From: an uncultured Holophagales bacterium
GTDB taxonomy: Bacteria; Acidobacteriota; Thermoanaerobaculia; Multivoradales; UBA5704
DNA: 64,000 bases
Assembly: GCA_963842525.1 (NCBI GenBank)
Contig: CAWJGT010000019.1
Span: forward strand, 224,001 to 288,000
Direction: 5' to 3'
The notes beneath the pieces are model-generated. The model did no database searches. It was not told where the DNA came from and saw only the letters and a list, made by a program, of their open reading frames with translations. Made by a program: the position numbers and the translations under genes. Of the stretch, positions 18,514 through 24,500 are shown one piece after another. Each line of letters starts with the position of its first letter. Position 1 is the first letter of the stretch.

Positions 18514-21500
18514 GAAGCCCAGACAGCTCGACGGGCTGCCGCCGGAGAAGCTGCAGCGCTTGATCGAGAAGCTCCAGGCCCGGAGGCAGGGGGGGACCAG
18601 CCAAATCCCGCGCCTGCCGCGGGCCGCCGGGAGCAGTGTGCCGCTCTCCTTCGCCCAGGAGCGTCTCTGGTTCCTCGATCGGCTGGAGCCGGGCAACCCG
18701 ACGTTCAACATGCCGGCTGCCGTGGACCTCACGGGCGAGCTGCGCGTGGGAGCGCTCGCCGCCGCGGTCGCCGAATGCATCCGCCGGCACGAGGTCCTGC
18801 ACACCCGTTTCCGGATGGGGCCCGCCGGGCCGGTCCAGGAGGTCGTCCCCGGCGCCAAGGCCGCCGTACCGCTCGTCGACCTCGCCGGGCTGCCGGAGAC
18901 GGCGCGCCTGCGCGAGGCGGACCGGCTGGCGGCGGAGCACGCCCATCGACGGTTCGACCTGGAGCGCCCGCCGCTGCTTGCGGTCCTGCTGGTGCGCCTG
19001 GCGGCGGACCGCCACCGGTTCCTCCAGGTCATGCACCACATCGTCTCCGACGGCTGGTCGCTCGCCATCCTCTTCCGCGAGATCAGCGAGCTGTACATGG
19101 CCTTCGCCGCGGGGCGGCCCTCGCCGCTGCCGGAGCTGCCGATCCAGGTCGCCGACTATGCGGTCTGGGAGCGCCGGACCTTCGCCGCGGCCCAGGACCA
19201 GCAGATCGCCTGGTGGATCGAGCGGCTGCGGGGTGAAATCGCCCCTCTCGACCTGCCCATCGATCGGCCGCGGCCGGCGGTCCAGACCTACCGCGGCGAG
19301 CGGCGCCTGCGCTTCCTCCCGGAGGAGCTGTCCGACCGGCTGCGCACCTTCGGACAGTCTGCCGGCAACGCCACCCTGTTCATGACCCTGCTCGCCGGCG
19401 TCAAGGCGCTGCTCTACCGCTGGAGCGGACAGCACGACGTCGTGGTGGGATCGCCCATCGCCGGCCGGCAGCGGGCCGAGACCGAAGGCCTGATGGGATG
19501 TTTCCTCAACACCCTGGTGCTGCGCACCGATCTCGCGGGCGGCCCTTCCTTCCGCGACTTGGTCGGGCGCATCCGCGAGACCACGCTCGGCGCCTATTCG
19601 CACCAGGACGTGCCGTTCGAGGCGCTGCTCCAGCACCTGCCGGTCGAGCGCGACCTGTCACGGACGCCGCTCTTCCAGGTGCTCTTCAACATGCTCAACT
19701 TCCCGCTGGCGGAGAACCGCCTGCCGGGGTTGACCCTGTCGCCGGTCGGCACCCCCGAGACCCCCTCGAAGTTCGACATGACCTTCTACGTCAGCGACGG
19801 TCCCAAGGGGGTCCTGCTCGACCTCATCTACAACGCCGACCTCTTCGACGCGGTGCGGATGGAGGAGGCACTGGCCCAGATCGAGCTGCTCCTGGCCGAG
19901 GCGCTGGAGCGGCCGGACGAGCCGGTCGAGCGGCTGTCCCTGGTCACCCCCGGCGCACGGGCCGCGCTGCCCGACCCTGAGGAGCCGCTCGACGGCGACT
20001 GGGTGGGGGCCATCCACGAGATCTTCGCCGCACGGGCGCGGAGCGCGCCGGAGCGCACCGCCATCGCCGACCGCCACGGCGCCTGGACCTACGGCGATCT
20101 CCTCGCGGCCAGCCGCGGCATCTCCACCTGGCTCGGCGCGCGCGGGATCGGCCCAGGAGAAGTCGCTGCGGTGTGGGCGCACCGGAGCGCTCCGCTGGCT
20201 CCGGCCGTGCTGGGCATCCTGCGCTCCGGCGCGGCGTTCGCCATGCTCGATCCCGCCTATCCGCCGGCCCGCGTGGTGGACATGCTGGAATTGGCCCGGC
20301 CGGGCGCCCTGGTGCGCCTCTCAGCCGCGGGTCCGCTGCCGGAGGCGGTCGCGGCCTGGGTCGAGGAGGCCGGCTGCGCGGTGCTTGAGCTCGCCGTGGG
20401 CGGCCCTGACGCCACCCTGGAGCTATTCGCCGGCCTGCCGGTCGCGGACGGCCCCAAGGTCGAGGTCGGTCCGCACGACGCGGCCGTGCTCGGCTTCACC
20501 TCCGGCTCCACGGGCAGGCCCAAAGGAATCGTCGGCCGGCACGGGCCGCTGACCCACTTCCTCCCTTGGCAGTGCGAGCGCTTCGGGCTCACCGTGGAGG
20601 ACCGCTTCAGCCTGCTGTCGGGACTGGCCCACGACCCGCTCCAACGCGATCTCTTCACCGCTCTTTTCCTGGGCGCCGCGATCGTCGTCCCGGACCCAGA
20701 AGACATCGGCGTGGCCGGACGGCTGGCGGCCTGGATGGCGCGCGAGCGGGTAACCGTGGCGCACCTGACGCCGGCCATGGCGCAGCTCCTCACCGAGCGG
20801 CCGGCGGGTGGCGCGGAGGTGACCGTCCCCACCCTGCGGCGGGTTCTGCTGGTGGGGGACGTCCTCACCCGGCTCGACGTGGCGCGCATCCGCCGTCTCG
20901 CTCCGCACGTCACCTGCGTCAACCTCTACGGCTCGACCGAGACCCAGCGCGCGGTCGCCTTCCACGAGGTCGAGGAAGCGGGCGCGGGAGAGGGACGGGA
21001 CAAGCAGGTGCTGCCGCTCGGGCGCGGCATGCGCGACATCCAGCTCCTGGTAGTCAACGCCGCGGGGCTCCTCGCCGGCGTCGGCGAGGTCGGCGAGATC
21101 GCCGTGCGCAGCCCGCACCTCGCTCGCGGCTACCTGGGCGACGAGGCTCTGACCGCCGACCGCTTCCGCACCAACCCGTTCACCGGCGCACCGGAGGACC
21201 GCGTCTACCGCACCGGCGACCTCGGTCGCTATCTGCCCAATGGGGAAGTGACATTCGCCGGCCGGGCCGACCTCCAGGTGAAAATCCGCGGCTTCCGCAT
21301 CGAGCCGGGCGAGATCGAGGCGGTGCTCGGCGCGCTGCCGGGGGTGCGCGAGGCGGTCGTCGTGGTCCGCGAGGACCGGGGCGAGAAGCGCTTGGTGGCT
21401 TATGTGGTGCCCGAGCGCGAGGGGGCGGTCGCGGTGGCCACCGTCCGCGAGGCACTGCGCGACCGCCTCCCCGCCTACATGGTGCCGGCTGCGTTCGCCC

Positions 21501-24500
21501 TGCTCGACAGGCTGCCGGTGACCCCCAACGGTAAGATCGATCGCAAGGCCCTGCCCGCGCCCATGGCCGAGACTGCACCGGAGTCGGCCGAGGTCCTGCC
21601 GCAGAGCGAGCTCGAAGAGAGCATCGCCGCGGTCTGGCGCGAGGTCCTGGGCGTCGAGAAGGTCGGTGTGAGCGACAACTTCTTCGACCTGGGCGGGCAT
21701 TCGCTGCTCCTGGTGCGCCTCCACGCGCGGCTCCAGGAGGTCCTGGGGCGCGAGGTCGCCCTGATGGATCTCTTTGCCCACCCCAACGTCCGCGCCCAGG
21801 CCGCGCGTTTCGGCCGCCCTGTGGAGGCACCTCCGCGGCCGGAGGCGCTCGTGCGCCGCCGGATGTCCGCTGCGGGCGCGAGCGGGAAGGTGGCCGTTGT
21901 GGGCATGGCCGGCCGGTTCCCCGGGGCCAAGGACCTAGACCGCTTCTGGCGTAACCTCTGCGACGGCGTCGAGGCGATCTCCTTCTTCTCTGATGAAGAG
22001 CTGATGGCCGGCGGCGCCGATCCGTCGCTGCTCGGCAACCCCAAGTACGTCAAGGCGCGGGGCGTGCTGGCGGACGAGGACCTCTTCGACGCCTCCTTCT
22101 TCGACATCCCGCCGCGGCAGGCCGAGGTGATGGACCCGCAGCTCCGGGTCTTCCTCGAATGCTCCTGGGAAGCCCTGGAGAGCGCCGGCTACGACCCGTC
22201 GCGCTACCCTGGCGCCATCGGCGTCTTCGGCGGCGTCACGATCTCCACCTACCTGCTGAGCAATCTCCTTTCGAACCCGGAGCTGCTCGCGGAGGTGGGC
22301 GTCTACCAGGCGTCGATCGGCACCGACCGCGACTTCCTGACCACCCAGGTCTCCTACAAGCTGGGCCTGCGTGGCCCGAGCCTGGACGTGCAGACCGCCT
22401 GCTCGACCTCGCTCGTGGCGGCCCACCTCGCTTGGCGGCTGCTGCTCGCCGGCGAGTGCGACATGGCGCTGGCGGGCGGCGTCTCGGTCAAGGTGCCTCA
22501 AGTCTCCGGTTACTTCTATCAGGAGGGGGGGCTCGACTCCTCGGACGGCCACTGCCGGACCTTCGACGCCAGGGCCGACGGCTCGGTCTACGGCGGCGGC
22601 GTCGGCCTGGTGGTGCTCAAGCGCCTGGAGGACGCGCTCGCCGACGGCGACACGATCCATGCGGTGATCCTGGGCTCGGCCATCAACAACGACGGCGCGG
22701 CCAAGGTGGGCTATACGGCGCCGAGCATCGAGGCGCAGGCCGAGGTCATCGCCACGGCCCAGGCGGTCGCCGGGGTGGCGCCGGAGTCGATCGGCTATAT
22801 CGAGTGCCACGGTACGGGCACGGCGCTGGGTGATCCAATCGAGGTGGCGGCCCTGACCCGGGCCTTTGGGCCGATCGAGCGCAAGGGCTTCTGCCCGATC
22901 GGCTCGGTGAAGACCAACATCGGCCACCTGGGAGCGGCGGCGGGCGTTGCCGGCCTGATCAAGGCGGTGCTCGCCGTGGAGCACGGGAAGATCCCGCCAA
23001 ACCTCCACTTCACGACGCCGAACCCCAAAATCGATTTTGCGGCCAGCCCGTTCCATGTCAACGTGCGCCTCGCCGATTGGCCGCCCGCGGGGAACAACGG
23101 GGACAATGGCCTGCGGCGGGCCGGCGTCAGCTCCTTCGGCCTCGGCGGCACCAACGCGCACATGGTCCTGGAAGAGCCGCCCGCAGCCGAGCCGTCCGGG
23201 CCGTCGCGCCCCTGGCAGCTCCTCCTCCTCTCGGCCCGTTCCGAGGCGGCGCTCGAAGCGGCGACCGACAACCTCGCCGGCTGGCTGGCGGAGCATCCGG
23301 AGGCGCCGCTCGCCGACGTGGCCTGGACCCTCCAGGCCGGCCGGCGGGCCTTCGCGGTCCGGCGCGCCGTGGTCTGCCGCGATCCTGAGGAGGCTCGGCA
23401 GGCCCTTGCGGAGCGCGATCCGCGGCGGCTCTTGACCGTAGTCCAGGAGCCCGGGAGCCGGCCGGTGGCCTTCCTGCTCGGGGGCGTCGGCGATCACTAC
23501 CCGGGCCTGGCGAAGAGCCTCTACGAAGGCGAGCCGGTTTTCCGGGCGGAGCTCGACCGTTGCGCCGAAGGGCTGCGGCCCGACCTCGGTGGCGACCTGC
23601 GCGAGGTGCTCTTCGAAGGTGAGCGCCGGGGCGACGAAGGTGGCCTCGACCTGCGAAAGATGATGGGCCGCGGCGGCGCGCCGGCTGGACGGCTCCAGCG
23701 TACCTTCTGGGCGCAGCCGGCGGTCTTCACGGTCGAATACGCTCTGGCTCGCCTCTGGATGTCCTGGGGCGTGGTGCCCGAGGCGCTCCTCGGCTACAGC
23801 CTGGGCGAGTACGTGGCGGCCTGCTTGGCGGGGGTCTTCTCCCTGGAGGACGCGCTGCGCCTGGTGGCCGAGCGGGCGCGCCTCCTGGAGGAGCTGCCGG
23901 CTGGGGCCATGCTCGCCGTGCCCTTGCCCGAGGAGGAGATGCGGGTGCGGCTCTCCGGCCAGTTGGACCTTGCTGCCGTCAACGGGCCGCAGCTCACCGT
24001 GGTATCGGGCCTGCCGGAAGAGATCGCGGCTCTGGCCGAGCGCCTGGCCGCGGAGGGGATCCCCTCGCGGCCGGTGCCTACGACTCACGCCTTCCACTCG
24101 CGGCAGATGCGCCCCGCGGCCGACGCGCTCACCGCCCTGGCGCGGCAGATGCGCCTGGCGCCGCCGCGCATCCCGCTCCTGTCGAACGTCACCGGCACCT
24201 GGATGCGGCCGGACGAGGCCATCGATCCCGCCCGCTGGGCGCGCCACCTCTGCGGCACCGTGCGCTTCGCGGACGGCGTCGCGGCCCTCTGGCAGAGCCC
24301 ATCGCGGGTCCTCCTCGAGATCGGACCGGGCAACGGCCTGTCGGCGCTGGCGCTCCAGCACCCGGCGGTGTCTTCCGGCGTAGGAGACCGGGTCGCGGTG
24401 CCGTCGCTCCCCCATGCCCACGACCGCCAGCCGGACCAGGCCTTCCTGCTCGGCGCCCTGGCGCGGCTCTGGCTGGCTGGCGTCGAGGTCGACTGGAGCG

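Follow-up and report, generated by a model that had tools for sequence, protein, structure and literature searches.

A Lys2-like adenylation domain ahead of a polyketide synthase module in a nonribosomal assembly line of an uncultured Holophagales bacterium

Introduction

Fungal Lys2, an enzyme of lysine biosynthesis in which an adenylation (A) domain is followed by a thiolation (T) and a thioester reductase (R) domain, activates the delta-carboxyl of aminoadipate, as reported by Ehmann et al. (1999, a study cited in PMC2823734). Among modular nonribosomal peptide synthetases (NRPSs), the glutamate-activating A domain of McyE and NdaA, from microcystin and nodularin synthetases, is reported to have a specificity code of the type that begins with Asp-Pro-Arg-His (DPRH) and to give gamma-linked D-Glu; in McyE it leads into a T and then a condensation (C) domain, not a ketosynthase (KS). 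Module 1 of ACV synthetase starts its assembly line and has an N-terminal domain of its own; its code begins with Glu and contains Pro236, Arg239 and Asn278. Here we describe an A domain with the code DPRHLVLRAK that stands in front of a polyketide synthase (PKS) module. It lies on the plus strand of a 64,000-nucleotide stretch of DNA (the window; positions 224,001 to 288,000 of contig CAWJGT010000019.1, GenBank assembly GCA_963842525.1) from an uncultured Holophagales bacterium of the Thermoanaerobaculia, phylum Acidobacteriota.

Side-chain activation has also been described elsewhere. ACV synthetase module 1 activates the distal carboxyl of 2-aminoadipate (Aad) within an NRPS (PMC7884236). 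Zmn16 A1, from the zeamine assembly line of Serratia plymuthica, has the code DPRHLALLAK and was predicted to load Aad (PMC3547906, Table 2), and prezeamine begins with a “gamma-aspartate”, that is, a side-chain-linked Asp, according to tandem mass spectrometry and NMR (PMC5811116). VinN and AfcQ adenylate the beta-carboxylate of Asp or 3-methyl-Asp because the alpha-carboxylate is bound by an Arg where the pocket opens (PMC12186527), and the PARAS paper names two A domains that tether Asp through its side chain (PMC13126170). Bacterial sequences sister to the fungal reductases are on record as well (PMC2823734).

Results

The A domain and its module

The domain sits in an 8037-residue open reading frame (ORF; 18506-42619, plus strand). 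Pfam scans of this ORF in chunks place AMP-binding at 20024-21136 (E = 5.5e-61) and AMP-binding_C at 21311-21535 (E = 2.2e-14), and the core motifs A3 (10 residues), A7 (YRTGD), A8 (11 residues) and A10 (PNGKIDR) are intact. An earlier note on the same DNA, made from the letters alone, had started the domain at 19990, which is one base out of frame and runs into stops; the open frame is 19991-21571. Each of the five motifs that it quoted occurs exactly once in the ORF, and together they span 20495-20956:

20024..21535, plus strand: Lys2-like adenylation domain, code DPRHLVLRAK (Pfam PF00501 and PF13193; TIGR03443; core motifs A3, A7, A8 and A10)
20495..20542, plus strand: quoted motif of 16 residues, amino acids 664-679 (sequence match)
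20615..20659, plus strand: quoted motif of 15 residues (sequence match)
20762..20779, plus strand: quoted motif HLTPAM (sequence match)
20852..20869, plus strand: quoted motif VGDVLT (sequence match)
20921..20956, plus strand: quoted motif of 12 residues (sequence match)

Alignment against 14 of the window's other A domains reproduces the code DPRHLVLRAK at the ten specificity positions, as the earlier note had read it. This alignment covers 15 of the window's 16 A domains, the frameshifted 16th being left out, and its specificity columns were placed by their usual position relative to the core motifs. The same placement yields textbook-looking codes for the siblings, namely DILQLGVVWK, DFWNIGMVHK (in two domains), DAWTVAAVCK, DASTVAAVCK, DLFNNALTYK, CVQHIAQVIK (in three) and DALDLGSVTK (in three), and DFWNIGMVHK is listed as a Thr code in Table 2 of PMC3547906. 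Among the 15 the DPRH type is unique to the domain at 20024-21535, which carries the Asp235-Pro236-Arg239-His278 signature of distal-carboxyl-activating NRPS A domains.

The neighbourhood likewise agrees with the earlier claim of an adjacent PKS module, given that the A domain passes directly to a T domain and then to a catalytically intact KS, acyltransferase (AT) and carrier:

18638..19969, plus strand: C domain, HHIVSDG at ORF amino acid 177 (Pfam PF00668 at E = 5.3e-94, spanning residues 45-488 of the chunk that begins at 18506)
21620..21808, plus strand: T (carrier) domain, LGGHSL serine motif at amino acid 1062 (Pfam PF00550, E = 1.3e-15)
21887..23011, plus strand: KS with TACSTS (Cys), HGTGT and NIGH (Pfam PF00109 and PF02801)
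23471..24487, plus strand: AT with the GYSLGE active site and HAFH (Pfam PF00698, E = 7.8e-46)
24707..24892, plus strand: carrier of the PKS module, LGGHSL (Pfam PF00550)
24965..27796, plus strand: next module, C (HHIVADG) and A (DILQLGVVWK) (Pfam; code alignment)

By the usual rule, the HAFH motif marks the AT as presumably malonyl-type, and DILQLGVVWK is a code that we take to be of the Gly type. No Pfam match to a ketoreductase (KR), dehydratase (DH) or enoylreductase (ER) was found in the KS-AT-carrier module, where the gap between AT and carrier is only about 74 residues. Since the reductive domains are absent, we predict that the beta-keto group survives, barring the action of a trans-acting enzyme.

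A Lys2-like subfamily

The Lys2 model TIGR03443 is the top match of 81 NCBIfam hits of the DPRH domain (512.1 bits, E = 2.7e-153, profile positions 233-752), a match well beyond chance, and the score of 512 bits to the A part of Lys2 is more than twice that of ordinary A domains of the cluster; two siblings reach 190.4 and 240.6 bits. With the generic model TIGR01733 the order is reversed, the DPRH domain scoring 359.9 bits versus 458.1 and 457.4 for the same two siblings. The window protein is nevertheless not a Lys2 enzyme and has only a Lys2-like A domain: the TIGR03443 score lies below the whole-protein cut-off of 1030.1 bits, and in place of the A-T-R order of Lys2 there is a C domain before the A domain and a T-KS-AT-carrier stretch after it, with no thioester reductase. 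Lys2 serves lysine biosynthesis, whereas the window domain belongs to secondary metabolism. The two share the Asp-Pro-Arg-His start of the code.

The same division runs through the source genome (9.95 Mb in 34 contigs, 96% complete; the window is C19:224001-288000 in its contig numbering). TIGR03443 scores of its A domains are bimodal, with six at 388-550 bits and all others at 289 bits or less. Three of the six carry DPRHLVLRAK, two DPRHFVYRAK and one DPRHVAVRAK, which suggests up to three substrates for the DPRH codes of this one genome. The five Lys2-like domains in addition to that of the window, all found with TIGR03443, are:

C23:277481-279772, code DPRHVAVRAK
C3:1568802-1570766
C3:1438263-1440098, code DPRHFVYRAK
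C34:264363-266312
C19:511827-512834

In all, 128 matches to parts of TIGR03443 were found, and the genome is thus unusually rich in NRPS and PKS genes.

A FastTree phylogeny was built from 102 A domains, of which the window supplied 15, the rest of the genome 5, and databases 54 Lys2-like-coded and 28 other domains. It places 59 of the 60 Lys2-like-coded rows in one clade (SH-like supports of 98 and 99), from which all 42 ordinary domains are excluded. The single outlier is a 33%-identical domain that a crude “RH” rule had mislabelled as Lys2-like. Grouping with ordinary A domains, which would have spoken against the earlier note, is not seen. Among relatives of at least 48% identity in species-representative genomes, TIGR03443 is the top match in 15 of 15 (371-533 bits), and none of 11 generic A-domain loci reaches it at E <= 1e-95. 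Three independent tests, by profile, genome-wide scores and tree, agree, as the earlier note had claimed, that the domain at 20024-21535 belongs to the Lys2-like subfamily of A domains.

No Lys2-type A domain was found in the PDB, where the closest chain is LgrA and modular NRPS A domains score up to 444 bits, and clusters from the ESM Atlas were all of the generic “adenylation domain” kind. VinN and AfcQ have the idea of side-chain activation in common with the window domain, but they are stand-alone enzymes of a separate lineage (chains of beta-aminoacyl-ACP synthetases, ACP being acyl carrier protein, score 142-147 bits), whereas the window domain is in-line. The DPRH string was not found in the supplement of PMC12283262.

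Comparison with the known in-line systems gives partial likenesses. Like the window domain, Zmn16 A1, which has a fabclavine counterpart, is a bacterial NRPS domain feeding a PKS-containing line (PMC3547906). Compared by code only, the two differ at position 330 (Leu in Zmn16 A1, Arg here) and position 301 (Ala versus Val), and Zmn16 A1 is a first module followed by a C domain, whereas the window domain leads into T-KS. No zeamine-like locus was identified among 400 sampled Gammaproteobacteria genomes in a TIGR03443 scan that scored two candidates per genome; matches occurred in four of these genomes, two on the T-R part only and two over most of the profile. The likeness to McyE and NdaA is that of a DPRH-type code, and here a KS follows the T domain. 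No McyE-like locus was seen among 301 sampled cyanobacterial genomes, a result that does not show McyE to lack such a domain. The six Lys2-like A domains that these genomes do contain are 42-47% identical to that of the window and have the codes DPRHFGFQAK, DPRHFAFQAK or DIRHFGFQAK; the two inspected are plain C-A-T NRPSs, not McyE-like. At one of these two (L114, G532:C7:20000-39999) a DPRHFGFQAK domain lies in a three-module NRPS adjoined by a CmlA-like diiron beta-hydroxylase and an MFS (major facilitator superfamily) transporter, a layout that looks like a siderophore cluster. As for ACV synthetase, Pro236 and Arg239 are shared by code, and DPRN-type codes occur in the Lys2-like clade.

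A cassette conserved in Thermoanaerobaculia

Three of the six Lys2-like modules of the genome have the same layout, C-A(DPRH)-T-KS-AT-carrier-C-A(Gly-type)-T, with the same spacing. These are the window's own copy, that at C3:1568802 (72% identical, with the same code) and that at C34:264363 (DPRHFVYRAK). One other of the six is a C-A-T module ending in a thioesterase (TE).

Similar arrangements occur in related organisms. All relatives of at least 55% identity in genome contigs come from metagenome-assembled genomes (MAGs) of Acidobacteriota or Thermoanaerobaculia, and the sole other phylum among those of at least 48% is represented by one Chloroflexia MAG, at 53%. The relatives of at least 55% speak against the myxobacterial or actinomycete origin that a GC content of 72% might suggest. 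We examined 29 relative loci in genome contigs, 28 of them readable. The exact code DPRHLVLRAK is present in 15 of the 28 and a KS comes next in seven; after the PKS module of those seven the following A code is Gly-type in four, Thr-type in one and not reached in two. Relatives without a PKS behind the DPRH module continue with a Gly-type module in two cases, a Thr-type module in two, or a module of another type, and many of the proteins stop at the T domain. The best 120 database proteins gave 335 A-domain hits, 81 of them DPRH-type and 16 with exactly DPRHLVLRAK, of which 10 sit in the last module of their protein. In a separate protein search over the A-T-KS junction, DPRHLVLRAK stands at 5 of 27 A-to-KS junctions, and those five come from Thermoanaerobaculia or unnamed records. 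In two homologues with the exact code and 70% identity (P0045 and P0046) the protein also includes a domain of the nitroreductase family (PF00881), which may be an oxidase-type tailoring domain.

The KS sequences follow the same division. The KS at 21887-23011 shares 80% identity with its counterpart in the DPRH cassette of another MAG (locus L014), but only 63% and 62% with the KSs behind the Tyr- and Ala-coded modules of the window itself, which are 73% identical to each other. This pattern indicates that the cassette was inherited as a unit. The cassette [DPRH A]-T-KS-AT-carrier-C-A(Gly) is conserved in Thermoanaerobaculia.

Proposed chemistry and its alternatives

Overall, the explanation that we consider best, and towards which we lean somewhat, is a Lys2-like A domain in a C-A-T elongation module that loads its substrate through the distal carboxyl, with extension by the PKS module and joining to Gly. 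The A domain would take an acidic alpha-amino acid, adenylate its distal (side-chain) carboxyl and tether the substrate to the T domain. The upstream C domain would acylate the alpha-amine with the growing peptide, which would leave the alpha-carboxyl free. Condensation by the KS would then add malonyl-carrier to this side-chain thioester. In the absence of a KR the beta-keto group would stay, and the next C domain would join the beta-ketoacyl unit to Gly. The backbone would thereby be routed via the side chain of an N-acylated 2-amino-oxo-dicarboxylic acid, and by analogy the earlier note's “long-chain keto-amino diacid” unit appears a reasonable inference. We know of no characterised natural product with an N-acyl-2-amino-oxo-dicarboxylate beta-ketoamide unit.

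Distal-carboxyl loading by this domain is, judged by analogy, probable. It is favoured because every characterised domain with Pro236, Arg239 and His278 that we can name acts on the distal carboxyl: Lys2 and McyE, and likewise Zmn16 A1 (PMC3547906, PMC5811116). The code agrees at eight of ten positions with the Lys2 code and also with the printed Zmn16 code, Arg330 being common to Lys2 only. As to the substrate, Glu is the foremost candidate, though short of being likely; Aad and Asp are each less likely than Glu and about equal, and some other residue would be less likely again.

Several findings weigh against this reading. Asp235 is kept, the residue to which the alpha-amine binds in A domains of the ordinary kind. 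The tree has no experimentally characterised anchor, and the tie to Lys2 runs through the NCBIfam profile only. The codes of the clade are diverse (DPRHLVLRAK, DPRHFVYRAK, DPRHFGFQAK, DPRN..., NHRH...), and the clade probably holds several substrates. At least six frame breaks in neighbouring modules leave room for a decayed assembly line or an error-prone assembly. For Aad in particular, the supply pathways score poorly in the 96%-complete genome: LysX reaches at best 55 bits (cut-off 276), lysine aminotransferase (LAT) 130 bits (cut-off 521) and homocitrate synthase 193 bits (cut-off 414), and the genome has one weak saccharopine-dehydrogenase-type domain.

Some of these points would be accommodated if the domain were Lys2-like by descent yet activated the alpha-carboxyl, perhaps holding an acidic substrate with Arg239, His278 and Arg330, so that extension by the KS would yield a gamma-amino-beta-keto acid unit of the ordinary kind, the presumed outcome also at the Tyr- and Ala-coded modules. 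Besides the retained Asp235, the canonical C-A-T elongation module fits this account, as do the two further A-T-KS-AT-carrier modules of the window that follow the ordinary codes DASTVAAVCK and DLFNNALTYK and show that PKS extension is not special here; the sampled bacterial clade is, moreover, known from sequence alone. We consider it unlikely, given the distal action of the characterised domains named above, the clean separation of the Lys2-like clade from ordinary A domains, and a KS of another lineage than those behind the Tyr and Ala modules. A narrower version of distal loading, with Aad specifically (the call that nearest-neighbour matching of codes would give) and a 2-amino-6-oxo-suberate-type residue as the unit, gains from the sharing of positions 235, 236, 239, 278, 301, 330, 331 and 517 with the Lys2 code DPRHFVMRAK (the two differences are conservative), and from one database homologue with exactly DPRHFVMRAK. 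Arg330 is shared with Lys2, where the Asp-loading Zmn16 A1 has Leu (PMC3547906). This version is quite unlikely, in view not only of the low-scoring LysX, LAT and homocitrate synthase but also of the lack of any Aad-supply gene in the scanned 38 kb upstream and 40 kb downstream of the window, and a like prediction of Aad proved wrong for Zmn16 A1 (PMC3547906 versus PMC5811116). The Lys2 code itself, like the Lys2 and McyE codes and motifs that the earlier note quoted, was not found in our literature search, and no paper was found there for McyE, adenylation and gamma-carboxyl together.

It is also conceivable, but highly unlikely, that the cluster is decaying or non-functional and the module without a present function. 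In favour of decay, tblastn with sibling domains reveals at least six frame changes (at about 10118-10212, about 11373, 40686-40717, about 49001-49028, 49192-49306 and about 62819-63113), all inside domains that go on in another frame; removal of the breaks would merge the ORFs 18506-42619, 40716-49076 and 49297-55695 into a single gene. Yet the module under study is intact, the breaks being in neighbouring modules, and its C-A-T-KS-AT-carrier-C stretch is open with all catalytic motifs kept. The broken domains are 43-73% identical to their siblings across the breaks, more like single-base assembly errors, and the two paralogous cassettes lie in open frames of 5679 and 7069 residues. Contigs from four read runs matching 40001-50000 were short pieces of related organisms, none of them near-identical across a break.

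Returning to distal loading, we tentatively propose, as a possible rather than a probable generalization, that the Thermoanaerobaculia-type cassette lengthens an acidic side chain by two carbons to give an N-acyl-2-amino-oxo-dicarboxylate beta-ketoamide with a free alpha-carboxylate, and that it does so in three paralogous lines with two DPRH codes.

Other features of the assembly line

The window is about 72% GC and filled with plus-strand NRPS and PKS genes, part of a cluster of more than 20 modules that extends from about C19:216222 to about C19:300400. The host gene of the module and two sulfotransferase (ST) domains of the cluster are:

18506..40717, plus strand: host gene while the frame holds, C-A*-T-KS-AT-CP-C-A-T-C-A-T-ST-C-A-T-C-A-T-KS-AT, where A* is the DPRH domain and CP a carrier; the last AT goes on in another frame from about 40686 (Pfam; tblastn)
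31460..32111, plus strand: sulfotransferase domain between T and the next C, after a Thr-coded (DFWNIGMVHK) module (domain scan)
45168..45819, plus strand: sulfotransferase domain in the same position after the other Thr-coded (DFWNIGMVHK) module (domain scan)

The sulfotransferases of CurM and olefin synthase sulfonate a carrier-bound beta-hydroxyacyl group, which prepares it for elimination. The first sulfotransferase domain of the window strongly resembles these “activating” enzymes (CurM, PDB 4gbm, E = 2.3e-69; olefin synthase, 4gox, E = 8.9e-60), and equal spacing recurs behind a Ser-type module in the paralogous line on C34. Thr tethered to a T domain is itself a beta-hydroxy thioester. 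By analogy, it is therefore an attractive idea that this Thr would be sulfated and then either eliminated to dehydrobutyrine or kept as stable O-sulfo-Thr. A single literature search on sulfotransferase domain, NRPS, dehydrobutyrine and elimination found no paper.

Two further codes recur in the window. CVQHIAQVIK, with Cys for the usual Asp235, occurs in three plus-strand A domains (214-1800, 6789-8400 and 16681-18300), and its form suggests a substrate without a free alpha-amine or one otherwise unusual. DALDLGSVTK occurs in three consecutive A domains (53800-55400, 57210-58800 and 60435-62000, plus strand). The last NRPS protein of the cluster (C19:295402-300408) joins an A and a T domain, preceded by a weak C domain, to a C-terminal MFS domain (PF07690, residues 1229-1568). 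The scanned cluster flanks show no thioesterase, and no amino-acid supply genes except a large NAD-glutamate dehydrogenase upstream, which may be a housekeeping enzyme.

Significance

A domains that tether their substrate through the side chain decide the iso-linkage and the free alpha-carboxylate of a peptide backbone. Standard code matching mislabels such domains: Zmn16 A1 was predicted to load Aad and found to give iso-Asp, and a standard pipeline would likewise call the window domain “Aad”. The class as such is already known; in uncultivated Acidobacteriota and Gemmatimonadota the Lys2-like clade has many and varied members, with several codes. Less ordinary is that in one lineage, from a phylum without nonribosomal peptides known to us, such a domain is repeatedly coupled to a minimal PKS module and then to a Gly module. 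If the proposal is true, PKS homologation of a side-chain thioester would be a new route by which keto-diacid units enter peptides, and would offer a handle for mining the products of the phylum. Knowledge of the substrate of one such didomain would calibrate prediction for the whole clade.

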